Part shown: piece by piece, positions 1,288 through 64,000 of the stretch
Layout of the letters: every line of letters begins with the position of its first letter
Numbering within the stretch: position 1 is the first letter of the stretch
Source: Phoronis australis
Lineage: Eukaryota > Animalia > Phoronida
DNA length: 64,000 nt
Reading direction: 5' to 3'
NCBI GenBank assembly: GCA_002633005.1
Contig: NMRA01000739.1
Location: forward strand, 62,001-126,000
Translations under genes and position numbers: made by a program
The notes under the pieces: model-generated
Seen by the model: only the letters and a program-made list of their open reading frames with translations
The model's database searches: none
Told to the model about the DNA's origin: nothing

Positions 1288-2552
1288 CTGAAAAGAAGAA
1301 CTGAAGAAGGTGAAATCCAGACAGACATTGGGACCAATCATTGCACCATTCGCTATTGACAATAGAAAAACAATAGTCAGGGAGGGATTCATTACTTGGC
1401 ATATAATCTCCAACAAAACAGTTTAAGGAAAAACATATTATGACGCCTGGGGCATGTGAAGTAGCAAAGCATTTAAAACGATACGCAATGTCACTTTGAA
1501 AGTTTCAATATGCAATGTTAGAATACCTGTGAAATACACCAACTACACGCACAGGGCTTAATATTTTTGTTCCAAACAGCCACTTGCGAGCAGAATCTGC
1601 ACAAAATTGCATACAAAAAGGCTCATTTTACAGTATTGATGCAATGCTGCAGGATCATTAAAAAAATTTTTACAAAATCATTGCGTAAAACTGAGCCTTT
1701 CACACTGGCAGGCTTCCCAATTGTCATTTACTTTCAAATGGGAGACAGACACTGGTCCATGTATCTTGTAGCACAATGCCCCATTGGTGACAAAGAAAGA
1801 ACCAAAACCATCAAATAGGGAATCATCCAAACGAATTTCAAGTTCAAACATGTGTCGTACAATCATACGTCCACATACCACTAGGTGTGTATGACCAGTT
1901 ATCAGTGTTTTGTGAAAGTATCCATTTCAGTAACGAACAAAAAACAAAGTTTTAATAGTCTTTATTGATGCATACTTTAAGAACTTTTTTGTTGTGAGTT
2001 TTCCATGGAGCTAGGTGGGACCTGAATTGGGGATCCTTTGTGTGCCAGTTGATACACTGTATCTCTTACCACTAGACAACAGTCATCCAGTTACTATTAA
2101 AATGGAGCCAGTGCAAATCCTAGTCGTACCAGATGGAAAAATTAAAGTAGACCACTGACCACCATGAGTGAACCACATACCGGGTTAGTTATTTCAAGAA
2201 TGCTATGACACCTGAAGATGGTCAGATAGATGTCCAAAATGATGTTACATCATCAGTGTACAGATTTTTAGGAAGGCATGGTCCAGAGGGCATGCACCAG
2301 AGTAAATTTCTTGCAAAAGGTATTAGGCAATTTAATTGAACATTTGTAACAATAAAATGGCATTTTGTCAAACTTGAGTCAGAATGTAATGCGTTCTTAT
2401 AGCGCCTAGCTTCAATTTATTTATACATTTAAATGGCAAGGCAAGTTTTCTTGTGTTGTAGTCGAAGGAAATGGAAATTTAGTTGTGGTTTTGTGCAGCT
2501 ACAAAACTGCAAAATTTCCAGACAGTCCAGCATATTTTGAAAACTACTAATA

Positions 2553-3394
2553 CTGTACATGTTGTCAAGTACTGCATGTGTCGTCAAGTACTGCACATGT
2601 CGTCAAGTACTGCACATGTCGTCAAGTAATGCACATGTCGTCAAGTACTGCACCTGCCATCGTGTACTGCACATGTCGTCAAGTACTGCACATGTCNNNN
2701 NNNNNNNNNNNNNNNNNNNNNNNNNNNNNNNNNNNNNNNNNNNNNNNNNNNNNNNNNNNNNNNNNNNNNNNNNNNNNNNNNNNNNNNNNNNNNNNNNNNN
2801 NNNNNNNNNNNNNNNNNNNNNNNNNNNNNNNNNNNNNNNNNNNNNNNNNNNNNNNNNNNNNNNNNNNNNNNNNNNNNNNNNNNNNNNNNNNNNNNNNNNN
2901 NNNNNNNNNNNNNNNNNNNNNNNNNNNNNNNNNNNNNNNNNNNNNNNNNNNNNNNNNNNNNNNNNNNNNNNNNNNNNNNNNNNNNNNNNNNNNNNTAATG
3001 CACATGTCATCAAGTACTGCACATGTCATCAAGTACTGAACAAGTCATCAAGTACTGCACAAGTCGTCAAGTACTGCACACGTTGTCAAGTACTGCACAT
3101 GTCGTCAATTACTGCACATGTCATCAAGTACTGCACATGTCGTCAAGTACTGCACAAGTCATCAAGTACTGCACATAACGTCGAGTACTGCACATGTCGT
3201 CAAGTACTGTACATGTCATCATGTACTGCACATGTTGTCAAGTACTGCACATGTCATCAAGTATTGCACATGTCGTTAAGTACTGCACATGCTGACAAGT
3301 ACTGTATATACTGTCAAGTACTGTATATATTGTCAAGTATATATTGTCAAGTACTGTATATGTATTTTCAAACACTGTATACATTGTCAAGTAC
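2553..3394. repeat. 19-bp tandem minisatellite (CACATGTCGTCAAGTACTG)n in RIIAD1 intron 3, interrupted by an assembly gap
   Basis: Unit visible on both sides of the N run; it degenerates toward 3394. Confidence 0.95.
2697..2995. other. Assembly gap (299 N) inside the minisatellite
   Basis: Run of N. Confidence 0.99.
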
Positions 3395-20394: not shown

Positions 20395-20526
20395 TCCAGT
20401 GACACATAAGAAAACGTCACAAGAGGTTTTGACTGTGAAAACTACGGCAATCTGATTTTTGTGTAAAGCAGTACTTGGGTAAAAACTTGTAAGCGATTGA
20501 GTGCTTGAGAAGTAGTCACCACCAGA

Positions 20527-21633
20527 ATGTGCAGTACGTCTCCACAAGCTTTGTCTTTGGGTTTCACATATGGGTTGAACGTTCCCAACACCGGCCCACT
20601 GTTGCCATCTCAGCTCGGAAGCGGACGGGCCATTCCCCGTGGGCTCACGATAATGGACATCCAGCGAGCTCAACTATTCGACTATACCGCTCGGTTGCAG
20701 TATGCAGCGAGCTTGCGAGGCTTCCACCCGAGCTCCGCATTTCACCACCCTTACCAGCCCGATCCGTTTGCGTTTCTCTATGGAAAGCAAGATCCACGGG
20801 GACGTTTCGTTCACGAAGAGCCTAAACCAAGTCACAGCTACATTGGATTGATAGCTATGGCCATATTGAGCTCACCGGAGAGGAAATTGGTTCTGAGTGA
20901 CATTTACCAGTGGATTCTGGATAATTATCCATACTTCAGAAACCGTGGCCCTGGATGGCGTAACAGCATACGACACAATTTATCGCTGAACGATTGTTTT
21001 GTGAAGTCGGGGAGATCTGCCAATGGCAAGGGGCACTATTGGGCCATTCACCCAGCTAACGTGAACGATTTCAAAAAGGGGGATTTCCGTCGACGACGCG
21101 CCCAGCGCCGAGTTCGCAAACACATGGGCCTAGCCGTGCCGGATGAAGATGACAGCCCAAGTCCGTCACCTTCTCCTAGCATCCAGGAGTGGCAAGAACG
21201 CCAGCTGTCGGCGGATTTAGGGGACGACCACTCTGATAGCACGACTGTGTCGTCGCTCTCTTCAAGTTCCGACAGGAGCTTTAACAACAGCGTGCCAATA
21301 AAGAAACGAGCATTTGACATGGACACCCTGTTAGCACGCGACAGTGAGCGCACATGCGCGCGTGAACAGAAAGTTATGCGTGTGGAGTCCGTTCTCGACG
21401 TCAGTGTTTCGCCAACTGTTTTGGTATCAAACACTTCGCCAACACTGGATAGTCCTTGTAAACGCCCCGTTGATGGCTTCCGACGAAGTGCGTTCCACGT
21501 AACTGGCCACAAGATCTGCAACGTCAAACCCTCGGATCAACTGTCTCAGAACGCGCTTCTTTCACCTAAACCTGGGTACCTGGAAGCCAGCCGACAGTTT
21601 TGTGCCAGCTTGACATCATCAAATATTAAGTGA
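20527..21633 (+). CDS. FoxQ2: Forkhead transcription factor FoxQ2 (fd102C/FoxQD type, C-terminal eh1), single exon, 368 aa
   Basis: Forkhead domain [17 protein letters not shown]...[34 protein letters not shown]...[18 protein letters not shown] (about 20821-21132) is diagnostic of FoxQ2. eh1-like FDMDTLL at 21313-21333. An alternative start at M43 (20653) is possible. Confidence 0.96.
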
Positions 21634-23055: not shown

Positions 23056-23162
23056 GAAGAAGAAGAATGACGATGGGGATGATAATAATGGTAATAATAA
23101 TAATGATGATGATAATGATGATGATGATGATGATGAAGATGATGATGATAATAATAATAATT

Positions 23163-23237
<75 letters not shown>

Positions 23238-23297
23238 CTGATGCTGATGATGATGATGGTTGTGGTGGTGGTGGTGGTGGTGGTGGTGATGATGATG
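23000..23297. repeat. Compound trinucleotide microsatellite (AAT)n(AAG)n(ATG)n(GTG)n
   Basis: Read directly; source of poly-I/M/S ORFs. Confidence 0.95.
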
Positions 23298-36570: not shown

Positions 36571-38095
36571 TTTAGTGGTCTTACTCATCGTTCCATCAAT
36601 ACAACGCCTGTCTGTACATATACAGTGTATTGTGTTTCGTTGTTAATGAAGACTCCATCCTTGAATATTTCTCTTCCTTCCTTCCTCCCTAGCTTCTCTC
36701 GCCTCCCCTCCCTCCCTTGGCTGCCCTCTGTCCTTCCCTCTACCGCCATTCCCCAGATATCTCCTTCACTCCCTTCGTCCTTCCCTGCCGTTTCACTCCA
36801 ATAATGAAACTCATGTATTGAATACAGTGTACAAGTCTAACATGTGTGTATTTAGCCAAGTTTCTGCAAAACTATATGAAGTTCAACCCAATAAAGGTCA
36901 CAAGGTTCAAAGTTCAGCAAACATAAAATGTACTTTGATAGCAAAACAACGGTATCAAAAGCATGTCGCATGTCAAAATTTCGTTTCATATAAATATTCA
37001 AAATGAAATCTCACACTAGCTGTTACAGTTTGGTTTTGGTTGTGATTAATTTATTTATTTTCGGTGAAAATCATAACTTCTCTATTTTCGATACTCCCTG
37101 ATGCAAAAGTGAACTATTTTAAAATAACTCCTATCATGGGTTGGGTGAATCTGAACTGAAAGTTTAATGCGATCAGCCATTTCTGAGACACAGTGTTCCA
37201 AAGTGACCCAAATTTGGGTATTTTTCTAAGGTCTCACATAGGCTTAAAATGACCTGAAGAGCGGAAAGAAACATCTCAAATTATAGAACAGAAAAGAAAC
37301 AACACACATATGCACGCACGCACCCCTGTGATGACCATACAAGCTCCCTACTTCATAAACGAGACAAAAATGAAAATTTGATCAAGACGTCAAGTTATTG
37401 ACAAAATTTCAAAATACAATTCGACAGAAACCGGTCCTCGGACCTGAGTTTTCGATGCTCTTTGAAGTCGTGTTCTCAGAACGTGTGAGTCCGTCATAAC
37501 AGTTGATGAAACGGACTGAAGGCGATATAGGAAAACACGATCAACCTAGGCCGAAAATATGCCTTGATTGAAACACCGTCCAAATGAACATTACTCAGCC
37601 GTCCTGGCTTGTCCCTTATCCGAGGTCGTGGTCAGAACTACTTTAGAATTACACCGCTTTTACATAATTTGTATCGGCGTAATTAGGTTTACTATCGCTC
37701 AAACAGTTTGAAGAGCCCAGTGCCCAGCTGCATGAAACAGACCCAAATAAGGACTCAACTAAGGTGCCTAATATTACTGTGTGCCTGTGGACTTGTGAAA
37801 ACACTGAAAGTGTTCTTTGATGCCGTTTCAGTTTCATCAATAAGTCAATTTTTGGATTTGATAGAGAGCGAGAATTAATTCCACGGTGAATTCTCAATAT
37901 TATTGAAAATAAGTAGGGGTCTTTCATGCAATGCCCCTAATTTAAGTACTGTGCCCCTGTTTATTTTCAGTGAATTAAGAGCGAAGTTTTTAATTATATC
38001 ATTAGAAAATGTTACTAGTAAAAGGGAACCTCATAATGAAAATAAAATGGTGGAAAAGGATTTCATTTTGTGAGTAAAGAAGGACGCAAATACCC

Positions 38096-38396
38096 AAAAG
38101 ATTCAGGGAACGTAATTGAGTGCCTATTTCAGACTGTTTCATGCGACTGGGCGCTGGTCGTTTGCAAGCAAAAGATTTAGGGAACGTAACTGAGTGCCTA
38201 TTTCAGACTGTTTCATGCGACTGGGAGCTGGTCGTTTGCAAGCAAGAGATTTAGGGAACGTAATTGAGTGCCTATTTCAGACTGTTTCATGCGACTGGGC
38301 GCTGGTCGTTTGCAAGCAAAAGATTTAGGGAACGTAACTGAGTCCCTATTTCAGACTGTTTCATGCGACCGGACGCTGCTCGTTTGCAAGCAAAAG
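38096..38396. repeat. 74-bp tandem repeat x4
   Basis: agggaacgtaa recurs at 38105, 38179, 38253 and 38327. Confidence 0.95.
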
Positions 38397-43178: not shown

Positions 43179-43472
43179 TTGTATAAAGTATACATTTGGC
43201 TAAGTGATGTTTACTTGTATAAAGTATACCTTTAGCTAAGTGATGTTTACTTGTATAAAATATACCTTTAGCTAAGTGATGTTTACTTGTATAAAGTATA
43301 CCTTTGGCAAAGTGATGTTTACTTGTATAAAGTATACCTTTGGCTAAGTGATGTTTACTTGTATAAAGTATACCTTTGGCTAAGTGATGTTTACTTGTAT
43401 AAAGTATACATGTACCTTTGTCTAAGTGATGTTTACTTGTATAAAGTATACCTTTGGCTAAGTGATGTTTAT
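43179..43472. repeat. 36-bp tandem repeat x8 (TTGTATAAAGTATACCTTTGGCTAAGTGATGTTTAC); one unit carries a 6-bp insertion
   Basis: TGTTTA recurs at 43208, 43244, 43280, 43316, 43352, 43388, 43430 and 43466. Confidence 0.96.
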
Positions 43473-46400
43473 TTGTTTTCTGTCTTAGAAATGAAATTAC
43501 TTTCTTCAGCGTGTATTATACACTTCGACATTCTATGATTTTGTTTGTAACCATGGTCGCATTAACGGTTACGTTTATAATGGTTTTGAGTGCTCAGTTG
43601 TGTCGGGTAAGAAAATCTTTAATATTACGATGTCTTGGAAATATTAAATGTATTGCGTTTTGGCTCCACTAATGCTTAGAACGTAGCCGATTTTACATTG
43701 TTTCTCTCCACGTAAGCTTGAATGAACAACTGAGTTCATTTAAGAAAGAATACACGAAAAAGACGTAATTTTAAACAAAATAATAATTTTATTTCTTGAT
43801 ATTTTTGAAAAATGGTAACGAGAGGTGGAGACGCTGATTGTTTTTCAGTATTTCTTTTTAAAATGGTCGTTTAAGGTTTTATTTTGTAGCTAATTTCAAG
43901 CATGAACGAAACTGGACAAAAAGCAAAGAAAATCACGTGAAGTCGATCATTTTTATAAAATGTTTTTCACTTTTCAATAAGTCATTTTTATGTTATTTTT
44001 CAAAACCTGATGCTGCTGTTCTCTGAAACGTCTGTATAGTGATAATTTTTACTAAATAAATTAACATTATAACTGTGATCCTTTTACTTTCGTTTTGAGA
44101 TTTGGTAAATAGGCGATATTCCGTCACAATTTCACAACCACATCAAAAAATAAAGCTAAATAAAATCCTTCGCACTCATTCGAAGTTGTATTAGATTTCA
44201 AATTTTGTAATTTCGTAAAATTTGACTGACTGGATACAAGGTTTACAAAGTCAAGCGCTCGTTTTGTCACCACCGTGACATTATGATTACAAGCGTCGAG
44301 TTGTGCAGAAAGCCTGCGTTATTTGTGGCAGGCCCGTAGCAAGGGTTTCCGGGGGGTGGGTCGATCGAACTCCCGCCCGCGAAAATGGTCCAGCCCAAGC
44401 ATACATGATATATTTGAACACTGACGACAACAAAAGTGTTGTAGCTTTTACTGGTATTACTAACTGCAATAATAATCAAGTTGGGACTAATTTCGAATTC
44501 GCTGCTGGTCCAAAGCGCTTTGCGTAATCACTTCGGCTTGCCACCCGGCAATTTCGCCAAATGGCCAGATATGTGCGCAGATGACAGAATTGGGCTGACG
44601 ATTAGAGGATATGCTGTGTGTTCTTGAGCCACCGACAATCACGTTGAACGTGCGTGGTGACTACACCATAGGGTAACAAGTACCTAGAACTAAATGTCTA
44701 TACGTTCATAGTAGCGAGAGCTCCCAAAAAGTATTATGCGAATGCCTTAAAATCGATTTATCAACAAAACAGTTGAAAATAGGTTTGTTATTTGCTATTT
44801 AGATTTAATGACGTGAAGTGCAGTTTTCTTAGAATTAAAAGTTATCATCGAGTATGTTGTCCATCCCTTGCACTCTTTGGTTGTGAATTGGTGGAATAAC
44901 ACGCATGTGTTGTGTGCTTTTTCATTTTTTTTTAATTCAGTTCACGTAACTTCAATAGGCAGTCCTCTGTCGTTCCTCCAAAAGCAGACATTTCACTACC
45001 GTGTGTATTAACACAGAGAGAATCCCGCCGACGAGCACATTCATTGTGGGTTTAATAAAAAACCTAATGGCGCACGGCCTCGCCGACTTAGACACTGTAC
45101 GAGCAGCAAACTTGACGCTAGAGATTTACAAGGTTACTTGCAACTACTCTACGTTTCAATACTCATAAGGTTTATTGCCCGAAGGTCCACTGATCCGAAT
45201 GTTATTATTCCGAAACCAGGTTCACAACTCCGACTGTTTACTATTCTGAGTGAGTGCTAATGAGACGGAAATAACGTGCATAAAATGTTGTATTTGTGAT
45301 CATTTAGTAACCATTTAAAGGGTGTGCAAAAGTTGAACGTTGATTGCTTTGTGTGCCTACATGTATAAGACGACCTATTCTCAAACAAGGGAAATCTGGG
45401 AGACGGGGAACTTTTTATTATCATTTCACAGCTGCGGCGACTAACGGACGGCTTTAAATTTGACAACACACGATGTGACTCTCTGACTTAGTAAAGACTG
45501 GCACGGATAGAGTACCCTACTGCTTTTACTTTGACACGGTCATACGCGTATGGTAGTTCCAGTGCGGTGGGTGAGGTAGCGGGTATACTTTTCAGCCGTG
45601 CTTGACATGGTTTTGTTAATGCATCGTGGTTGATAATTCATCAATATTCCTGTTCCATACTGTTTTGAAAATTCCAAGTACGTATCAGTTTCTTCGTATT
45701 CATAACACATGCTTTGTAGCCCAATTTTGCATGCCCAAGAAATCCAAACATTGTGTACTATTACCCGGGCGTTGTTTCGGTATACATGTGGGTACACCGG
45801 TTACTGAGTCCAACAGCCGAAATATTGTCTAGTTTTACAAATAGAAGTATAAAAATTACGCCTCAGTCCGAAATTCCATATGTTTTCGGAGATGTGAGCT
45901 TTCGGAGTAGTGAACTGTTCCCCCGCTAGAAGCAATTCAAACAACACTGCACAGAATTACATCTACATGTACCAGCCTGACAAAATTTTCATCAAGTTAT
46001 TCTCTGGTAGATTCAGTTTCATTTTTTCACAAAAGTACCGATGAAAAATCAGGAACCAAGACGAAAAAGAAATTGCAATATAGTCAACAATTCAAAAATT
46101 CAGTGTTAATTTCGCCGGGGCCATTTTTCTGTAAGTATTTTTTCCTTTTTAGATAGCATGGGTTTACATGTGGGCAAACATAATTCGATTTTGATATTTG
46201 ATCCTGTACGCGTTTTTTACGTAGGCCTACAATATGGACAAGAAAAGTGCAGACGGTAGTGGCTTAATCGAAGTCTCGTCATTCCTTAAGAGCCTGCGAG
46301 ACAACGACTACATACATGTAACGTGACTAATTTCAAACATTGCCTGTTACGAAAGTAAATAGGATATTGTTTTCCATATTCCAATTAGCTTTTTGGAAAT

Positions 46401-51855: not shown

Positions 51856-51883
51856 ATGGAACCTGAGGAGATAACAGTTATTG
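51856..51883 (+). CDS. C2-IPT-FIP-RBD protein (class I Rab11-FIP-like), coding exon 1 of 6 (MEPEEITVI)
   Basis: Acceptor ttctctgacag at 51835, Kozak-like atcATGg, donor gtaaga at 51884. Phase 1; supplies the first C2 strand (compare P.HVQVTV of class I FIPs). Confidence 0.75.
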
Positions 51884-52077
51884 GTAAGAATGGGTGAATT
51901 TACTGATACTACATGTACATGTTGGTGTTGTCGAACCTCTCTGTTAAAGGTGCAGTAAGTCTGACTGAGGCCAGTTGCTTGTAGGTTTATAAGTCGAACA
52001 CACTATGTACTCAGATTAAGAATGGTTTCCAGATTCATAAAACCACTCGGCTGTTCAATTTATTCAGCCAGATATGC

Positions 52078-54768
52078 AGCACATATCACAAATTTTTGTT
52101 CGACCATTAGCCAATCGCAATGCCAATTCATAAGACAACCCCCCAGCCGATTCTTGATTGTCAACCAGCCGTCGACCGACTCCATTTTAAGGTGGTCAGC
52201 TGCTTCTGTTAGGCTAGAGTTTCAGTTGCGTAATAGGTTATCAGGCTATTGTCGCATTGCAAGCTGATCTGCATATTGCTCTCTGCACAGGGTGAAATAA
52301 ATTAACCTAGTTTTAAAGTGTGTCTCACTGGTACACAAGTTCACTCGGTAATTCGAAGGCTCAAAACAACCCATAACTGAACATTTTGGGATTATGGATT
52401 ATGGACAATGCAACCAGTTTTGAATAACAAGATGTGAAAGTTTTGAATCGTGACAGCAATGATTTCAGTTATAAATATTGATCGCGTCTCAATCAATTCA
52501 GCACTGTTTTCACTTTGAAAACACAGCTGTTTTTGCATTTGTAACTATACGACCATGACGACCATGACGTTAGCTTTTTTGCATGTTCACAAAAGTGCAA
52601 TAGAAAGCGCACGTGTGTAAAGAAATAAAATGTGGTCAGGGCCCTACGTAAATCAACTGTGAGGAACTACAAAACATACCTTCAAATTTAGATTATACAG
52701 TTTACAGCATACCACTTATAATGTAAGTTCTTAATGCACACAACTATTGTAATATCCCTTAAATTAAATGTAACCAACTGTGTATAGTACAAGAACGTTT
52801 GTGTACAGTAGAGTCATATGTTTTAATCTGGTTAACAATTCTTCACCCTGTATTGAAAGCAACAATTTCGGTGCTTAGTATTTCAAGCATTTATTTTCAA
52901 GAAACTTTTTGGAAAGAAGGCAAACTAAAATACTACAGAACACTTAGTAATAACCGCCTAGATTTGAAAAGTGTTCTCATTCAGAAATAATCACTCAACA
53001 TATGCTTGTAATGACATGATAACTTTTATTCACACTGAATATGTACATTTATGTACCTGAAATTTACAATACGTAGACACTGAACTGAACAACGGGCATT
53101 GTGGGCAGGTGATCTCCGAGTATTCCGTTATAACGCGCTTACATTTTGAGAACCAGTTGGATGCCCGATATTCAGAGGATAAAATTGGTTCTCAAAATGG
53201 TGGGCACAATATATCTGACTTTAGACCAACCACTTTTATTGTTTTTTAATGTTTTAGTGTTTGTAAATGCTTAGTGTAGATGGCTCAGTGCAGTAATACG
53301 TAGGGTTTATTGTGCTCTTTACCAACATTACAACCCCGTGCCTGTAATAAAGTAATTGTCATGAACATCAAGCAGTTGTATATGTTTAATTCTAATCGTC
53401 AAGTGTGTTTCGACTGTTCTGTTTGTAATTACACGTTTGCAGCTGTTAAAAAACTGACGAATTTCATCATGCTTTGACTTACGCCTCCCGATTCACGTAT
53501 TTTTGCAATTGGGCATTTGAATATTTTCGCATGCATATAACTTACCTCTTCAAAACATTAATTAAAAAACAAAACCTAAACTAGAGTTTCAACCCCGGTA
53601 CAAGAAATTTGCACCGCTGCTATAAGACATTGAAGAGAGCGATACTTTTTGTAAATTTTCGGGCTCTCTTGGGATAGTGAGTAACTGAACACTGTCTACC
53701 AATCACCCCATGACTCCCTAAATTTGCTTTGTAATTTTTGTTATAGATATGAATGATGTATGCGTTTATGTTTAGCATGGTATTCTTTTCTGAATCACTG
53801 CTTTATTTTTAACACCATCGTTGAAAACGCAATTATTAACACCTGGATTTTTTATAACACCGAAGGCCCGTTACTCCAAAGATTGTATTTTCAGAGTATT
53901 AAATCCTTGTAGTAACGACATACGCAACACACGCAGTATTGTGTTTATACCCTTAGGCTCGGAAGGCTGCAGTGGAAATAATATGGTTACGATTTTTACG
54001 AACTCGGAAAGTGACTTCAAACACAAAGTGAGGGTTCATGGTTGACGCTACAACCAATCCTAACTTTGCGCTCGCCGTTTCAATGTATCAGTGGCGTTAA
54101 AATCTGCGCTAGTGATCGCCCAGTTGTTGACGATTGGTGATGAAGTGTTAATCAAATTACTACCCTATGGGTACAATTGCGAGCTACTCATTGAATATTT
54201 CCCGGCTTGAAAACACCTGCGGTTGTAACATGTACAGTGTTGTTTTTGAATTGTCATTCAATTTCATTGTACAGTAACAGTTAAACGTTTCGTGATTGTT
54301 ATGCGTAAAAAATGCCTCATAGCTAGAGTTCGAACTTATGTTTTCCCGAGACCATTTAGTGTTTTAATTTTCCACGCCGTCGATAATTCCACAAGAACAT
54401 TTGCTTTGTTCTAATTTCATGCAATTTGTTCAGTTTTACTAATGTCAAATAGTCTAGAAACAGTTGATAAACTGCGGGTTTAAGACTAGAGTGGCCACTA
54501 GAGAACGAACAACAAACAGTCCGATGCCTGCTTGGCCAAAGTTCACTCGCTGATGCCAAGTCATAAAATGGTAATTGCTGACTGAGGATACGCATAATCC
54601 GAAATGGTCATCTAAGCTAGGCGACCAATTTTCCAACCCAATTGCCGACCGGAGAGGCGATTCAGATAAAGGCTCTTAGCCGACCTCTGTTGGTCGACTA
54701 CCGATCGGCTAGACGACTGGTCGTTGACCGATTTCCTACGGGTCAGACAAAAATTTGTGATATGTGCT
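52078..54768. mobile_element. About 2.7-kb non-autonomous TIR element in the first coding intron of the FIP-like gene
   Basis: Perfect 22-bp inverted repeat agcacatatcacaaatttttgt (52078-52099) / acaaaaatttgtgatatgtgct (54747-54768), extending imperfectly inward. No intact ORF. Confidence 0.7.
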
Positions 54769-56304
54769 ATAATGCATTCTAGCACTATCTTGGCTTAACT
54801 CCAATTCTAGTACATTACATTTTTGTGATAATCATTTCAAATAATAGTTGGGTTCCTCAAATGGTGTTTTGTTTTGTAATCGCACTACTTCTGCCCAGAA
54901 TTGGCGATGTTTCTGAATGGTGACGTGTTACAAAATATCAAAGGCAAATGTACTCTTGCGTCGTAATACACTAACTCCAGAGTTTTGGACGTTGTTTATT
55001 TTGTTGTCTTTCTGATGAGTCTTGAATGTGTTAGTCAGTGTTGACTGTTTGAAAAAATTTAGTACAAGTTCCGTCAATGATTCAGTCAGTCCATCAACTC
55101 ACAGTTCAATCAAAAGATTGCGTTTCCGTCAAACATTGCTTCAGATCTGACTGGGCTTGTTGTCATGGCATCTTAGTTTCTGCTGCCAAGGCAAAGCCCA
55201 GCATCAGGTGAACAAAGCCAAACACAGCAATGACAGTTTGGAGGAGGCCAAATGCCTGACTTGACGAATGTCATTTTTTGTCAACAGAACAAAATTTATA
55301 GCTGTTTTTATGAGTATCCCCACTAATATACTTTAAATTACTAGTTAAATTAGATAGCAACTTGTGCTGCGTTATCAACAAAGCTGAAATTATTGCAAAT
55401 GACAGCTTTACTGCGTAAGTGTCAAGGTGCTGTGTCAAAAACACGAATAAAAATGGCAATGCGTTTCTTTTGTCTCGTCACTAGAAACAAAATTTACAGG
55501 CAACATTACTTTCAAATAGAAAACTGGGCTTGTTTTTCATAATTGACAGTTCTCAAAGTTTCACTCACATGTCACAAGGAAATATGAATTTGCCATGTTA
55601 ATGCTGATTTGGTTAAAGGACTTTAAAGCTTAGGTTAGGTGTTATGTAAGATGAAATCATCCTTCAAGAAACCACTTTTCTCTTGATCTCAACACCTGGA
55701 CTGGATTTAGCTCAGGCGTGAGGCACTCACTCCGTTATACTACCAAAATATGGCTTTGTATGTTGAAATATCAACAATTTCAGATGAAATAATTGTCAAA
55801 ATTGGTCATTATCCATCGCTGCTAACATGAACACTTGCAATTTCTCAAAATATTGGCCAGTGGTATGGGGGTTTTCCGTAGATGAGCCCATGGGCGTGTA
55901 TTACCTTGCATTTCAGTAACATCGGCGTTTATTTGACGTAATTTTCTGAATAAAAACGGGTAGGCTTATCTACGGCAAATCTCGGTAGATGTGGAATGTA
56001 ATGAAGACTGATCAAATAGTATTTCATGCTGCTTATTTTATATGAAAAACCTGCAAAATAAAATCCCCTTTTCTACCATGTTGTGTCCTAAATTGGTGAG
56101 GTTTCACTGTGCACTCTTTTTTTTCCTTATCTGAAAATTGCGTCTGGTTTCCGGATCATTTGTGAACAACAACTGAATGAGGATGTATCACAGCCAGGCA
56201 TTTTTTTCGCGAGCCATTTTCTTGTCTTGCAATTACCAGTTTGGATCAAATAATTAAATACGTTTGTCATTAGTCATTATTATTTGTAATTATCTTTATT
56301 TTAG

Positions 56305-56446
56305 TTTATCATGGTTTGGATCTCCCTTGTAAGAAGAAAGGTCGGTCAAAGTTCTCCGTTATATTCGGCGTGGGGAGCAAAAAGTTTCGCACGGCAATGG
56401 TTGCAGACTTAGCGGGTCACCCCGTATGGAACGAGGAGTCTGCTAT
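56305..56446 (+). CDS. C2-IPT-FIP-RBD protein, coding exon 2 of 6 ((V)YHGLDLPCKKKGRSKFSVIFGVGSKKFRTAMVADLAGHPVWNEESA)
   Basis: Acceptor tctttattttag and donor gtaagg; phase 1 to phase 2. 'VG.KKF.T......G.PVWNEE' is a C2-domain signature. Confidence 0.88.
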
Positions 56447-56559
56447 GTAAGGGCGATGAACAGTTGGGCGAACGTTGCCAATGCTAAAATCTGCGAATTG
56501 GTTATAGAAGAGGATAGTCTGATGTTCCCTTTAAGTCTGTGTATTACCTTATTGACAGG

Positions 56560-57030
56560 TTTGCTTATTTAGCCAAATATTTAGCCAAGTATCCACATGA
56601 CTACAAATTGTAACTCAGTAAAGTAAAAAGCCTTGAGAATTTGACTTTTACCCAGTCTGTTATTAATTGGGTCACATGATCATGTCGTTTGAATTTGTAA
56701 AATTTACTAAACAGAAAGGTACATTGATAGCAAAACAACGACCTTGATAACAATGTTCAAGCTGAGATCTCAAACACGCTGCCATGGTTTTCTAAAGTAT
56801 CATTTTGTTTTCATTTTACGCTACTAAAGGCATTTCATGAAAATTTTAAGTTCTATTTTTGACAGCTCCTCATGGAAAAATGAAACAAATTAAAAATAAT
56901 TCCTATTGTTTTGGAGAACATTACTAAAGTATAGTACCTTAAAGTTTCACATGATTCCGATTGTCTGCTTCTGAGAAGCCATGTTCCAAAGATAACCAAC
57001 TTTAGACACTTTTCTATGGTCTTACATAAC
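56560..57030 (-). repeat. Old dispersed repeat family C fragment (inverted)
   Basis: Reverse complement of blocks at 10384-10830 and 39080-39590. Confidence 0.6.
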
Positions 57031-58793
57031 AAAAGCGCAAATTTATGGCAACGAGAACATGTCTGTCACATGTGGTTGTTCAATGAGGTTATGCCACATT
57101 GGTTTTCAAAAATGAAATTGACAAATTTTTGTTGAAGTTCATCTGGTTCCATTGAACTTAAGAAAAAAGGAAGGAAACAAGAAAAAATGAAAGTTTTGGC
57201 AAAAAAACTACATACATGAATCTTGGGTTTGGTTACTTTCACCAAATGCTTTTGAAGTCAGAAGTAAAACCAAAAGTTGCATTAGACAAAAACAAAATGT
57301 TATTTCGGAAATAAACCTGCATCAGCACTTTTGAATTCTCATTTTTACCAAATAAAATCTGGCCATGATTCTGATACCATTGTTTTGATTGACTGTACGA
57401 TTCTTTTTTGCTAAAATTTAGTCATGGTCATGTGACCTATGTAATGACATTGGTATACGCTAGTTAAAAATGAAAGTACAGGCTTTCTACTTTTGGAAAA
57501 TGTATATTTTGCTAATTTTGCTATAGTTCTGTAGATATTTGGCTTAACGCTCAGACTATCTTCAACCATCTAAATTGTTTGAGTTTATTAAAATGTTCTA
57601 TTAAAATTGTGTAATTATTATAACAGACGTTTGTCTCAGAATAGATGTCAGTAATTTGAATGAAACAGCCCTCACTTCTTGTTCTTCTTCTCCTCCTTCT
57701 TCGTCTTCTTCTTCTTTTTGTCATCTTTTGATTGGTGAAACTTCAACTAGTTGAAAACAGAGACCAAAAAATGTTGGTCACTTTCAAAAGACTTTTCTTG
57801 ACACTGACAAATGTAAGAAGTTGTAAGAGGTGGGGCCCAACCACAGTTTTAGAAGGAAAATTGCCATGCTAGTGGCGATAGGGGGAACGGCTGACTCCTT
57901 CCCCAAATCTGCCTATAATTGCTAGCCATGTGAGCAGCCTCTGACACAGATAATATAATTTATATTTATTGTGCTATGACTTTACACTGTTCTGAAGTTA
58001 ACGGCTAAACACGCCACTAGATTGTGTTTTTCGCCATGGAGACTAAAGTTGCATAATTTGTCATCTTGGAAAGGTCTTAGGTGAACGTTGACCTGTCATG
58101 CAATAAGGCTCAGCGCAAACTGTAAGAATTTAACGAACCAACCTGTCTGTTTCTCGTAGAGTGCGCGCCAAAAGTAGTCAGACCATTACACTTGTCATTT
58201 TATCTTCAGTGAAGGGAAATTCTACCTGCACTCAGATGTCACTATGCAAAATTCCAAGTTATTTTGTGTGATTACTTTTGCTATGTACTATAGTTTATCA
58301 TAATGGCTTTTAGGTTCTGCGGATGTTGTTGTTTTCGTGTTTCATCGTTGTTCATCTGCTATACAGATTGACATGTTTAGTCTCTAGGTGATAGAATCCT
58401 TGTCACTTGTAGCCTGTTTTCCACGAAGAAAGCCTCTGGTCTTTGTTTTTCTGGAAAAGGTTGCCAAAAGGTCATTCTAATTCAGTCTGTAACATTTTAA
58501 TTGACATATTTACCTTTCAAATAGTTGGCTTGTGAAAAGTGTCATAACAACAGAGGAAGTGAAAATGTTGCTTTAACCGTATCAAGACCAGGAATTCTGA
58601 GGCTAGGTTTTTATGTCCCATATTAGCAGCGAAAATATTAATTGTGAAAGTGAGGCTTAAACAGTGAAGCAATTTGCCATACTGGCAAGTTATTTTATCA
58701 TGTCATTGTTTCACAACAACTTTGTCGCACCCCTCTTCAGTTGTGCTGCCTCCTTTTGGACTCCACATTCAAAAGTGTCTGTTTGTTTTTCAG

Positions 58794-58953
58794 TCATATT
58801 GACAGCCCTGGCCATGACCTCAATTTCGTTGTTACTGATAAAGAGACCGTCTTGGGGCAGGTGTCGCTACCGGTCTCTAGCCTCCCTGGGGCGTTAGGGC
58901 GTAAGAAATCTCAAGCAAAGCTGATGCCGCACAAGAAATGTGCAGAGCCTCAG
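58794..58953 (+). CDS. C2-IPT-FIP-RBD protein, coding exon 3 of 6 ((I)HIDSPGHDLNFVVTDKETVLGQVSLPVSSL...KLMPHKKCAEPQ)
   Basis: Acceptor tgtttttcag and donor gtatac; phase 2 to phase 0. C2 strands 'L.FVV.D...LGQV.LPV..L'. Confidence 0.88.
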
Positions 58954-59324
58954 GTATACATTCAGGGAGAATGAATTGTCAATCTTTTCATGAAACTGAA
59001 GTTAACAGCTTCTAGTTTTCATGACATTCATTGCTGAGTACTGTAAACCTTCTAATGGAAGCCAAAGTTTCAAATAGAAGCTGGGGTTCAGGTCTACTGA
59101 AATTGATAAACGCGCGTCTCCTATACCAGCCGGTTCGGCCATATCTTGTGTTACATGATACTAGCTTGGAGCGTACGATTCGGTCTAGCAAGATTTTGTG
59201 TTTAGATTTTGGTTTCCCTAATAAGCTGATGTCTTGCTTGTATGGTTTATTAACTGTGTCCTTGACTATTTTTGCATATGTGTCTGTTTATTAAGTATGG
59301 CCTCAGCTTTCTTCTTATGCATAG

Positions 59325-59948
59325 GGTGAAATTATCTTTGATGCCTGGATCACTCGAAACAAGGCCTCCACCATCACGCCACGCCTTTCAATGACATCAC
59401 TTCAACAACACAAGTCAAGTCCGTTTCAGAAATTACGTAACATTCTGCCTCGATCACGCTCTCGTACCCAGACTGCTTCTCAGCCTGGCTGTCTGGAGAA
59501 GCACCACCAAAAACGGGAATTCATGTCCGTCAGCGACCTCCCTGGCGAGGTCACCAGGTCGCAGTCAGTGACCTCACTTCCTGTCATACTCCAGCTCAAG
59601 GCAAGCAGCTGCAGTCACATCGATAATGTGACCTTGGTGCCAGAGGTCACGGGAATCTCACCCAAAGAGGGTCCAGTAGGGGGCGGCACCAGGCTGGTCA
59701 TTAGGGGTCAGAATCTGGGACTGTCCAAGGAGGATGTAGTAGGACTCAACATATGTGGTGCTAACTGTCTGGCAAGTCTAGAGTACGAATCATCGCAGCG
59801 GCTCATCTGCACAACCAAACCATGGAATGCTACTACAGGACACGTGTTAGTTACTACTCAGTCGGGAGGACGAGGCCTGTCGGCTGTACAGTTCACGTTC
59901 ACTGAGGAGAACAAACCAGCAATGAAACTGACGGAAAAAGATCGAAGG
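59325..59948 (+). CDS. C2-IPT-FIP-RBD protein, coding exon 4 of 6: last C2 strand (GEIIFDAWI), Ser-rich linker, EXOC2/Sec5-like IPT/TIG domain (59640-59906)
   Basis: Acceptor ttcttcttatgcatag and donor gtacgt; 208 codons, phase 0 to phase 0. PEVTGISPKEG...IRGQNLG...ICG.NCL...VTTQSGGRG.S.VQF matches the Sec5 N-terminal Ral-binding IPT domain. Confidence 0.92.
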
Positions 59949-60946
59949 GTACGTAGAAAGGGTCTCCTGAAGGGACAAGAAACTGTTCCCAAAGGGATTT
60001 GGTGTGATTTCTCAAAATCAATGCTCAACAGTTTAGAAGATTGTGTATAGTTGATCTAAAAAAATGACGCAACCAAATTCATAGTTTCCAATTGCACTCC
60101 AGCGACAATTTGACATTGGCCAAGATTTGACATCTGGTCAGCAAATTTTCACTTGGATGTGCCCTTCATGAGGAATCTTGCTCTCTGTTGTTTGGAATCA
60201 TTATCTTTAAGGTTATGTAGGACCCTAGAAAAATGTCTAAATTTGGGTAAATTCGAAAATAATATCTCATAAATGGGTGATCAGACTCGTGGTAAAATTT
60301 ATCATGACGTGGGAATAGTGTTAATGTACAGACCTTGCAACACTAAGACTAGGCTAGACAAGGTGCATTACCCCGTGCGGTCTCTTGAGTTACCAAATGA
60401 ATTTGCCGACAGCAAGATATGCTTCAGCCGAGCAGTAAGTCAAGCCTATTCGAAAACACATGCCCCAGAATGTAAATCTAGGTTAGAAAGTACTGCGCCT
60501 CCAATTATTTCCACCAGATTAGGTTCACTGTGTTGGAAACACAATGGTTATGCTAATGCATTGTCTGCAGGTGATTGGAATGAGTGGGTTGTAATTTGTA
60601 GAGGCAACTTGGAAGTCATGGTGCACTATTCTCCAAAAGACTAGCAGGATTTGTTTTTGAAATGTTCCACATTTGCAAGACAGGTTATCAAAAATAGGGT
60701 TTGAACATGTTTTGTGGAAAAAATGAAACGTTCCATAAAAGAAAAATGAGATATCAATTTAGAAAACTATTACAGCATAAGATATCAATAACATTGTTTT
60801 AGATGGGCAAAACGTCTGTGAAGTTAGTTCATATTGTAGCACTAATACATTGTTTATAACTTCTTAAGAGGTGCACCTCTAGAAATTGATTATTTATTGT
60901 GGTTAAGTGTTTGAAAGCATTACCCGATGCTGATGTTTGATTTCAG

Positions 60947-61049
60947 AGTCTGTTCGGCATGATCACTGGGAACGACAACAAACACGCGAAAGACAAAGCC
61001 AAGCAAGACCTGACTGAAGAGTTGTATAAACTTCGCCGGGAAAATCAGT
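60947..61049 (+). CDS. C2-IPT-FIP-RBD protein, coding exon 5 of 6 (SLFGMITGNDNKHAKDKAKQDLTEELYKLRRENQ)
   Basis: Acceptor tttgatttcag and donor gtaagt; phase 0 to phase 1. Start of a coiled coil. Confidence 0.85.
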
Positions 61050-61414
61050 GTAAGTCTCGCATCTGAGCTAATTCTGTACCGTTATTCGCACAAAAATATT
61101 TGCTAAGAATCGTCATATTTGTATGTTTCAAAGGCTGACTTCATTCCTTGCTTGTAACAATAAATTGACTAACAGTTGTTTTATGATGAGAGGACATAGG
61201 GTACTTGGACTGGCCGACATTTTCAGAACTTCCTCATGCATCAGATTTCGTCTTGTTATCTTTATGCATTTAATTTTTATAAAAATCGATTAATTTTAAA
61301 AATTTCAAATTAGGAGTTATAATACTAAATAAAACGTGTCAATTGGAATCGGCATTCGTGAAAGTGACATGCCTGATTAAAGGGCCAGCAGACTGACTAG
61401 TTACATTCACAGAA

Positions 61415-61707
61415 CTACTGTAACCCATGCATAGCTATATTGCTACTGTAACCCATGCATAGCTATATTGCTACTGTAACCCATGCATAGCTATATTGCT
61501 ACTGCAACCCATGCATAGCTATATTGCTACTGCAACCCATGCATAGCTATATTGCTACTGCAACCCATGCATAGCTATATTGCTACTGCAACCCATGCAT
61601 AGCTATATTGCTACTGCAACCCATGCATAGCTATATTGCTACTGTAACCCATTTATAGCTATATTGCTACTGTAGCCCATGCATAGCTATATTGCTACTG
61701 TAACCAT
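61415..61707. repeat. 28-bp tandem repeat (CTACTGYAACCCATGCATAGCTATATTG) x about 10.5, in the last intron
   Basis: Read directly. Confidence 0.96.
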
Positions 61708-62318
61708 GTCTATCTAATATTGCTTTAGACACAAGAAGACTCACCCGTCATTTCCAACTTCACCAGTTCACCTTCATCATTAGTGATTTTTTAGTTCTTC
61801 CTGGACTGAGGTACAAGTTAAGTTGTCCAATTCAATTTTTTGACAATAAAAGTCTCTGAAGGTGACAGCACAGCAGTTTCCACTAAAGGTGCAATTTACC
61901 TCTTTCCTCCCAGAACAATGACTTTGTGTACGATTGAACTACAAACGTGATTATTTTGTGAGCTGAAAATAAACAATTTGCATGATTCAGTTGAGATGTT
62001 TTGCTAGTGCCTGTAGAGGTTACTAGGGTGTTAGCTTCTTAGTCGCATGTATAGTTTTCAAACTAAATTGAAGAGTGTCGAAACTCTCAGAAGACTTGAT
62101 GCTCAAAGCTCTGACTAAATATCCATTTCTGTGAGACTATTTTGAGGGTGCTACTGATGGTGCCTAGCCTCAAAGCCAAAACATTTTGGTGATGATTGCA
62201 TGCTAGTCATAGCAAATGAACAACATGGCCACGTGGTGGCATTGATCAGGTTGTTCTATTTTGTAGACAATGTACACCCACCTTTGCTTAGTGATGAATT
62301 TTAGGAATCTTTTTCTAG

Positions 62319-62416
62319 CTTTACGAGAAGAAAACCGTAATATGCGACTGTATGTTGACAAGTTGGTTGTCAAGGTGATGGACTCGTGCCCCCAGGTGTT
62401 GCAGTACCCCATTTGA
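62319..62416 (+). CDS. C2-IPT-FIP-RBD protein, coding exon 6 of 6 ((S)LREENRNMRLYVDKLVVKVMDSCPQVLQYPI*), Rab11-binding domain; spliced product 384 aa
   Basis: Acceptor tctttttctag; phase 1 fits exon 5. YVDKLVVKVMDSCPQVL matches the FIP-RBD motif YIDxLLVRVMExxPxIL; TGA at 62414-62416. Confidence 0.88.
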
Positions 62417-62970: not shown

Positions 62971-62976
62971 AATAAA
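62971..62976 (+). terminator. Probable polyadenylation signal AATAAA of the FIP-like gene
   Basis: First AATAAA noticed after the stop (about 555 nt), followed by ATTAAA and a T-rich downstream region. Confidence 0.5.
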
Positions 62977-64000
62977 CATTAAAAAGTCTATTTGTAAAGT
63001 ACTCTGTTTTAACGTATTGTTAATATTGTACCCCAGTTTAAGTGCCTGCAATCAAATATTTCCTGGGACATTAAGACATTTTAACAAAAAACCTTTATTT
63101 CTAATTCCATACTTGGTGATGATTATGACTACACTTGAAAAGAACTGGCAATGTAGACTCTTAAATAGTTCTATGGACATAGCATTTCATTACTACCTGC
63201 ACTCGGTGAATTTTAGCATTTCATGTTATATAGTATTATAAGATTAGGTGATGCTTTCTTAAAAGTTTTTATCCATATTGTATGTGAGACATGGCTTTTA
63301 TTTGTTATCTAGGCCAACATTAGCACCTTTTGTCTGACTTATGTCACGCGCAGTTTGATTGTTAGAGCGTGCAGCCAATCATTTGTCTTGGGAGCCCGTC
63401 ACGTGTATTGTTGCAATCATTGTTTGTTTTAGCACGTAGGAGGAGACACTTGTAGCTAGAAGAGGTCATCACGTGTTAATGAGTAACCCAGGCTGACTAA
63501 TCAATGACTTCACTAACCTTAGAAAGTTCAGTAGCGAAATATTATATTTTTCTGATGAATTCAGTCAGTACTATTTAACGGCACTCTTTCAGTTTGTTTT
63601 TCAGTTGAAAACATCATGTGAAAGGAATTTGACTGCAAATGAATCTAGTTTAAAGTTATTCCCTAATGAGGCTCTTCATTGATGTAATCAAATGTTTTCA
63701 AAATAACCAGAATTGAATATGGAATTTTCAAAATAGTTTTTTGTGGTGCACCTACAAAGTGGCCGCCACAGTTGAATGCCATTGAGCATCACTTTTCGTG
63801 AAATGTCTGTAAAGAAACCAAATACATGCATGTTCTTAGTAATGTCTATCAATTTATGAAGCTTTTCATAAGTTTTTTAATTCATGAAAATGAAGGAAAG
63901 AGTGTGCACTTTAAGAGTCGAGCATTCTGCCTCTGTGTTGCAACACGTGTCTCGCTAGATCTGGGTGAATTATTCATTTTTATATGTTTCTTGGTTAATG

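Follow-up and report, generated by a model that had tools for sequence, protein, structure and literature searches.

A predicted Rab11-FIP-like protein with an internal Sec5-type IPT domain in Phoronis australis, and its relatives across the opisthokonts

Exocytic and recycling carriers are steered by Ral as well as by Rab11, two small GTPases that are known to meet only via the exocyst, where Ral acts on Sec5 and Exo84 and Rab11 acts on Sec15. Outside the exocyst, Rab11 is bound by the Rab11 family-interacting proteins (Rab11-FIPs); we know of no characterised member of this group that carries an IPT domain, and none is known from the human and fly proteins. A class I Rab11-FIP consists of an N-terminal C2 domain and a C-terminal Rab11-binding domain (RBD), according to an excerpt of a published account (PMC3279423). 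The locus described here lies on contig NMRA01000739.1 of the phoronid Phoronis australis (assembly GCA_002633005.1), within a stretch of 64,000 nucleotides (positions 62,001 to 126,000, forward strand), which as a whole is called the window below. It contains a gene whose predicted product combines, in one polypeptide, the two terminal domains of a class I Rab11-FIP with an internal IPT domain of the kind found in the exocyst subunit Sec5 (EXOC2).

The gene, on the forward strand at 51856-62416 of the window, is read here as an intact member of an ancient opisthokont family, with a product that would serve as an adaptor, holding Rab11-GTP at its C terminus and likely Ral-GTP at the edge strand of its IPT domain. 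Taken as a whole, this reading is considered reasonably likely, and its parts differ in strength. The C2-IPT-RBD architecture by itself is close to certain, Rab11 binding by the predicted protein is probable, and the prospect of Ral binding is evenly poised.

Each internal boundary of the six exons carries the AG and GT dinucleotides expected of GT-AG introns in the window sequence. The exons sum to 1155 nt and join in phases 1, 2, 0, 0 and 1 into a reading frame of 384 codons that ends in TGA and holds no internal stop. The coordinates, splice borders and phases that a first-pass annotation of the same DNA had proposed for a 384-residue protein were all reproduced, and the gene is predicted to be intact. 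Exon 1 (51856..51883) supplies the ATG and the first nine codons (MEPEEITVI) and ends in a phase-1 donor, G/GTAAG. Exon 2 (56305..56446) covers the first C2 half, in which a polybasic loop (CKKKGRSK) lies, and exon 3 (58794..58953) the middle of the domain. Exon 4 (59325..59948), which lies in a single open reading frame (ORF) spanning 59325-60050, encodes the last C2 strand, a predicted disordered linker rich in Ser and Arg, and the IPT domain; because these three elements share one exon, the fusion of C2 to IPT needs no splice assumption. The start of a coiled-coil region falls in exon 5 (60947..61049), which has the acceptor TTTCAG/A, and exon 6 (62319..62416) encodes the RBD and carries the TGA stop, the YVD motif of the domain lying at 62351-62359. 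Candidate polyadenylation signals, AATAAA and ATTAAA, lie at 62971..62983 on the same strand, ~ 555 nt past the stop, as pattern matches only.

The IPT/TIG domain (59640..59900; exon-4 residues 106-192) matched the Pfam TIG family with an E-value of 2.7e-14. An AlphaFold 2 (AF2) model of exon 4 was confident over about residues 101-195, with predicted local distance difference test (pLDDT) values of 76-96 for residues 101-190, and had pLDDT below 50 over residues 1-100. In a sequence search of the PDB, the Sec5 chains 1uad_C (E 2e-19) and 1hk6_A (E 5e-19) headed the list at 73 bits, whereas no single plexin IPT scored above 31 bits, the value for plexin-A1. A Foldseek search with the window model likewise placed 1uad_C first (E 1.7e-7, target-normalised TM-score 0.79, 44% identity) and 1HK6 second, and the third match followed at 8.8e-4. 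The AF2 model of a relative, P0064, was based on a deeper alignment and matched 1uad_C with an E-value of 1.1e-10, a target-normalised TM-score of 0.90, a root-mean-square deviation of 1.6 Å and 41% identity; plexins came next, at about 1e-6. When single domains were compared over 209 phmmer-matched proteins, the best IPT scored 84-124 bits in family members, 80.3 bits in EXOC2 of Lottia and no more than 55.2 bits in any of 82 multi-IPT proteins. The window IPT is also 47% identical to Lottia EXOC2, compared with a mean of 40% to the family's mollusc members. By sequence as well as by fold, the window IPT is nearest to Sec5's Ral-binding domain, which agrees with the first-pass annotation, where the domain had been called Sec5-type.

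The likeness to Sec5 (1UAD, 1HK6) extends to the shared motifs VTGISP and (I/V)RG.NLG, at an overall identity of 41-44%. There are also clear differences. The window IPT is internal rather than N-terminal and has a two-residue insertion after the first strand, the exons of the gene lack the Sec5 core domain (PF15469), and no tested feature marks the protein as an exocyst subunit. Most IPT arrays are extracellular. Plexin/MET-type proteins and giant multi-IPT proteins belong to the same Pfam TIG family and have the same fold as the window IPT, but they match it with the low scores given above, and the repeats of plexins and MET are extracellular, whereas the window protein has cytosolic partner domains and, by eye, no signal peptide-like start.

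The C terminus resembles that of the Rab11-FIPs. Exon 6 scored 29.5 bits against the Pfam RBD-FIP profile (PF09457), with a cut-off of 23.3 and an E-value of 6.7e-7, which is a higher score than most relatives reach. A search of the PDB with the exon-6 peptide, at E-values up to 10, returned eight distinct sequences, and all eight were RBDs of Rab11-FIP1, 2 or 3. The window motif YVD sits where FIPs have YID or YMD, and mutation of YID/YMD prevents the binding of Rab11a, as stated in an excerpt of PMC3279423. The Tyr of this motif and the subsequent P..L were invariant across 57 aligned members of the family. A C terminus of the form Y(I/M/V/L)(D/E)...CP..L was found by pattern in 46 of 69 members and by eye in 12 more, while the C termini of the remaining 11 differ and seem truncated. 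For P0064, AF2 predicts a long helix at residues 354-402. In P0063 and P0064, the RBD ends in NP..LL, as in FIP3, instead of CP..L.

The C2 domain was recovered in parts, Pfam scans having been run exon by exon and not on the spliced protein as one sequence. Exon 2 matched C2 with an E-value of 0.0068 and 17 bits, which is under the cut-off of 22, since the exon covers no more than profile positions 11-53, and exon 3 alone gave no Pfam match. In alignments, exon 2 is 57% identical to the collected protein P0003, and exons 2 and 3 together align with the C2 domains of relatives. In the AF2 model of P0064, residues 1-110 form a confident β-sandwich that matches Munc13, NEDD4 and other C2 structures. 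The N-terminal C2 domain and the C-terminal RBD had both been named from the letters of the DNA alone, and both assignments stand, the former through the partial Pfam match on exon 2 and the homologue alignments, the latter through a score over the Pfam cut-off and the YVD motif. The C2 domain is polybasic, and the acidic calcium loop is absent from exon 2.

The window protein is thus laid out like the class I Rab11-FIPs (RCP/Rab11-FIP1, Rab11-FIP2 and Rip11/Rab11-FIP5) in having C2 first and a helical RBD with a Y(I/M/V)D motif last, and it differs from them in the IPT domain, one in the window protein and one to three in its relatives, that stands between C2 and RBD. In a protein atlas, FIP clusters carry C2 and RBD-FIP only, as judged by Pfam. 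The sequence SPFQKLR in the exon-4 linker (59418-59438), which follows the C2 domain, is taken by us to resemble the basic motif of class I FIPs. A further comparison was provided by the oyster protein P0020 (266 aa), which has C2 and a FIP-type C terminus and is without residues 191-371 of P0035 (181 residues, including the IPT), the flanks being 89% and 97% identical. Both records are labelled Magallana gigas, and for P0020 the possible explanations are a different isoform, an allelic or paralogous copy, and an artefact of the gene model. When P0020 was searched in a language-model protein atlas, with TIG clusters skipped, its matches included an arthropod Rab11-FIP1 (0.91), RFIP5 (0.90) and a rotifer C2 + RBD-FIP cluster (0.90), and C2 together with RBD-FIP occurred in 15 of the 30 matches. 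This likeness hints, as a lead only, at class I FIP kinship of the family.

The order C2, one to three IPT domains and a FIP-type C terminus recurs in about 70 collected proteins. The sources named in the first searches were the annelids Owenia and Paralvinella, the nemertean Tubulanus and ~ 35 molluscs. For 69 members, Pfam (E up to 0.1) identified TIG in 68, C2 in 61 and RBD-FIP in 35, and the highest identity between the window protein and any collected one is 42% over the full length and 62% over the IPT domain. An exhaustive search with exon 4 returned 2,914 proteins at E-values up to 0.001, and 65 listed matches of up to 1000 residues were followed up with Pfam. Among these listed matches, proteins with all three domains were present in the hemichordate Ptychodera flava, in Nematostella vectensis, in Lithocolla globosa (Rotosphaerida) and in Amoebidium parasiticum (Ichthyosporea); forms with TIG and RBD were present in Acropora and in the nematode Plectus, and a form with C2 and two IPT domains in Pigoraptor (Filasterea). 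The AF2 model of P0064 consists of three confident modules joined by disordered linkers.

A tree built on C2, IPT and C terminus and rooted on three protists branched in the order of the compact three-domain pair P0063/P0064, Nematostella, Ptychodera and then a clade supported at 97/94, which contains the window protein, the nemertean, the annelids and a mollusc clade supported at 100/98. On the gene tree alone, the organism of the window most likely falls among the spiralians, outside the molluscs. The gene tree matches the species tree, and the family is therefore vertically inherited and older than animals. As judged from these sequences, the C2-IPT-RBD architecture is that of an old and widespread family that extends from unicellular opisthokonts to hemichordates. 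An origin as a lophotrochozoan innovation was considered and is ruled out by the hemichordate, cnidarian, nematode and unicellular opisthokont members together with the rooted tree.

In the databases, the relatives are labelled as uncharacterized, as 'C2 domain-containing' or, wrongly, as 'exocyst complex component 2' or 'EXOC2-like'. Names of the EXOC2 type stand on the family members P0002, P0006, P0038, P0056, P0062 and P0212. Pfam did not find the Sec5 core domain (PF15469) in P0002 or P0006, nor did this domain rank with the 25 commonest families in the scan of 69 members; it appears that the EXOC2 names were carried over on the strength of the IPT match alone. Full-text searches of the literature, whose coverage leaves out most subscription journals, found no description of a FIP with an IPT/TIG domain. 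The first-pass annotation had likewise known of no such description, and in this it agrees with the searches, the proteins themselves being already in public databases, unannotated or mislabelled. Its claim of three domains in one protein also stands, with the correction that the architecture is not peculiar to the genome of P. australis and is present in many phyla.

The residues proposed as counterparts of the Ral contacts of Sec5 were found at the exact codons quoted for them. The equivalent of Thr11, in VTGISP, is encoded at 59649-59651 (exon-4 residue 109), and that of Arg27, in IRGQNLG, at 59703-59705 (exon-4 residue 127), both on the forward strand. The window is identical to Sec5 at Thr11, Gly12, Ser14, Arg27 and Gly28. 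Within Sec5, Thr11 bonds Tyr36 of RalA and the T11A substitution reduces affinity, according to an excerpt of PMC12407918; RalA Tyr36 packs against Sec5 Gly28, and the RalA E38R substitution abolishes Sec5 binding, according to an excerpt of PMC3130737. Of the 78 family-like IPT domains outside the mollusc clade, 62 retain the Arg27 equivalent (Lys in 3), and the Thr11 position is Thr or Ser in 64 of 78, family-like being any collected protein with fewer than four IPT domains, a definition under which a few unrelated proteins were possibly counted. In P0001 and in Paralvinella P0002, each of the three IPT domains keeps the Arg and has Thr or Ser where Sec5 has Thr11; the same two features are kept by the rotosphaerid, ichthyosporean, cnidarian and hemichordate members. 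Five alignment columns are kept in the non-mollusc members and EXOC2 and lost in molluscs, and three of the five correspond to Gly12, Ser14 and Arg27 of Sec5. This pattern is circumstantial, and it fits a putative Sec5-like binding surface that most lineages conserved and that was rewired a single time, in molluscs.

Several points weigh against the adaptor reading. On the side of the FIPs, a C2 profile searched against the PDB gave 36 matches, which were generic C2 domains only, none of them named Rab11-FIP. In a set of 5.8 billion proteins, the same profile found 68, namely family members and one extended synaptotagmin, with no canonical class I FIP among them. Since neither C2 search gave a canonical class I FIP, orthology to RCP, FIP2 and Rip11 is unproven. 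The RBD-FIP match is, moreover, under the Pfam cut-off in many relatives. On the side of the IPT, a tree of this domain only (96 columns, one EXOC2 sequence) contained a split with 77/91 support; EXOC2 came out on the family's side of it, within a base that was not resolved and that also held 3 of 22 multi-IPT rows. The grouping of the IPT with EXOC2, which had been predicted, did not emerge from this tree as a supported clade of family and EXOC2. Only one EXOC2 was available because the 150 listed search matches were taken up by the family itself and by giant repeat proteins with summed scores. The best IPT domains of the multi-IPT proteins P0115, P0116 and P0154 fell on the family/EXOC2 side, apart from those of the other 19, and had long branches.

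The remaining points concern the Arg27 contact. Arg27 of Sec5 is reported to pair with Glu38 of Ral (Fukai et al. 2003). At the same position, Arg was found in 0 of 53 mollusc-clade domains (Glu 39, Val 8, Asp 3, Ile 2, Ser 1), most gastropods and bivalves having Glu where cephalopods, scallops and a chiton have Val or Ile, and the mollusc IPT is still conserved within molluscs despite the loss. Plectus has Thr at the position and keeps the IPT. It follows from the mollusc clade that Ral binding cannot be general to the whole family, and the retention of the IPT without the Arg, in molluscs as in Plectus, implies that the domain has or gained a role independent of that contact. In the mollusc members, Sec5-like Ral binding is predicted to be lost or changed, with Arg replaced by Glu, Val or Asp.

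These observations are the natural ground for a different explanation, in which the architecture is real and the IPT does not bind Ral, serving instead for spacing, for dimerisation or for the docking of a different partner (another small GTPase or a motor), with a likeness to Sec5 that reflects descent only. Besides the 53 of 53 mollusc-clade domains without the Arg27 equivalent and the Thr of Plectus, it can draw on the 16 of 78 other domains that lack Arg and on the diversity of binding roles among IPT domains, since plexins, MET, EBF and Rel proteins are all among the fold matches. Against it stands the retention of the Thr/Ser, Gly, Ser and Arg equivalents outside molluscs, which spans unicellular opisthokonts to hemichordates and extends to every copy in the three-IPT proteins, and the columns that changed in molluscs cluster on the β1 strand and Arg27 of Sec5. 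The window IPT is also nearer to the IPT of a mollusc EXOC2 than, on average, to those of the mollusc family members. On balance, an IPT without any part in Ral binding is regarded as rather unlikely.

Under the adaptor reading, the C-terminal helix, with YVD...CPQVL at its end, would pair in parallel into a dimer, as in FIP RBDs, and hold two Rab11-GTP molecules on recycling endosomes. The C2 domains of class I FIPs bind phosphatidylinositol 3,4,5-trisphosphate (PI(3,4,5)P3) and phosphatidic acid, and the polybasic C2 domain of the window protein may bind acidic lipids such as these. The β1 strand of the IPT domain would pair with switch I of Ral, so that the Thr would touch Tyr36 and the Arg would touch Glu38 of Ral. 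The outcome could be co-detection of Rab11 and Ral on recycling carriers independently of the exocyst, or else competition with Sec5 for Ral-GTP.

A bolder version of the adaptor reading is put forward only tentatively. The family might represent a pre-metazoan, exocyst-free Ral effector that links Ral-GTP to Rab11 carriers, possibly the ancestral class I FIP, retained from rotosphaerid amoebae and filastereans through to cnidarians, hemichordates, annelids and nemerteans, with the Ral contact rewired in molluscs; its absence from the standard model organisms would be the reason that it was never described. If the adaptor reading is true, one polypeptide would constitute a direct, exocyst-independent bridge between Ral and Rab11, or a competitor of Sec5 for Ral, and the spread of the family from unicellular opisthokonts to hemichordates would make the coupling of Ral to Rab11 ancestral rather than a lineage oddity. 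Because no human or fly Rab11-FIP is known to have an IPT domain, the classical models would have lost such coupling. The Nematostella member makes the idea testable in a tractable animal, and the natural exchange of Arg for Glu in molluscs offers a built-in negative control. The comparison also exposes a recurrent annotation error, namely the label 'exocyst complex component 2' on members of the family.

The gene model was itself examined against homologues. A tblastn search of the window with two homologues placed the two halves of C2 on exons 2 and 3 (E 2e-8 and 1e-6), the IPT on exon 4 (E 5e-32) and the C terminus on exon 6 (E 0.007). The spliced protein is colinear with Owenia P0006 over junctions 1/2, 2/3, 3/4 and 5/6, and exon 5 aligns with P0006 from its first residues onward. 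All three IPT repeats of the tblastn relatives map to one place, so that the window gene has a single IPT; a second IPT exon within the introns was considered and is ruled out by tblastn and by the Pfam scan of the window ORFs. For exon 1, the 26 kb upstream of exon 2 yielded 15,515 9-mers free of stops, each scored against the N terminus of P0013: MEPEEITVI came top with 39, compared with 19 for the runner-up. An in-frame stop lies 12 nt before its ATG, a GT donor follows it in the correct phase, and the motif MEP.EV.V.V recurs in the Ptychodera, Nematostella and Liolophura proteins. Within intron 5, at 61415-61724, lies a 28-bp minisatellite of 11 copies with 95% matches.

It could be that the six-exon model is partly wrong, with too few or too many exons placed between exon 4 and exon 6, or that the locus is an unexpressed or decaying copy. 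The gene is known from genomic sequence alone, junction 4/5 falls outside the homology cover, relatives carry 100-400 extra residues between the IPT and the coiled coil, and the window protein is the shortest three-domain form seen, save P0190 (338 aa). Such an error is nevertheless improbable, as the splice sites are canonical and in phase with no stop, and of the three phase-0 GT sites behind the IPT only that at 59949 (AGG/GTACGT) is donor-like. Exons 1, 2, 3, 5 and 6 each match homologues where expected, the RBD scores above that of most relatives, and the compact proteins P0064 (405 aa), P0199 (407 aa; Nematostella LOC116616003) and P0112 (409 aa; Ptychodera) share the layout. That gene prediction fused a FIP gene with an EXOC2 fragment next to it, as the EXOC2-type names on several family records might suggest, is scarcely credible and already contradicted by the uninterrupted exon that holds the last C2 strand, linker and IPT; it is further opposed by the failure to find PF15469 in 142 window ORFs of at least 70 codons, by the separate true EXOC2 of Lottia (P0007, with TIG and the Sec5 domain) that coexists with the family member P0024, and by the recurrence of the same domain order in ~ 70 proteins from independent assemblies, among which the records of P0063, P0190 and P0206 have transcript-style names.

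In the rest of the window, the only other match above the curated Pfam cut-off among these 142 ORFs was a forkhead domain, and neither a GTPase nor a Sec5 core domain was found nearby among them. The forkhead match (E 1.8e-34) belongs to a Fox gene in a single ORF of 374 codons at 20509-21633 on the forward strand, ~ 30 kb upstream of the FIP-like gene, and its closest solved domains are those of FOXC2, HNF-3/FOXA and FOXD3 (Genesis). Several repeats were also observed. A 19-bp tandem repeat at 2551-3339 stands before and after a run of N at 2697-2995, which is an assembly gap; a microsatellite, (ATG)77, lies at 23067-23297, and tandem arrays of four 74-bp copies and eight 36-bp copies are present at 38095-38396 and 43179-43476, respectively.

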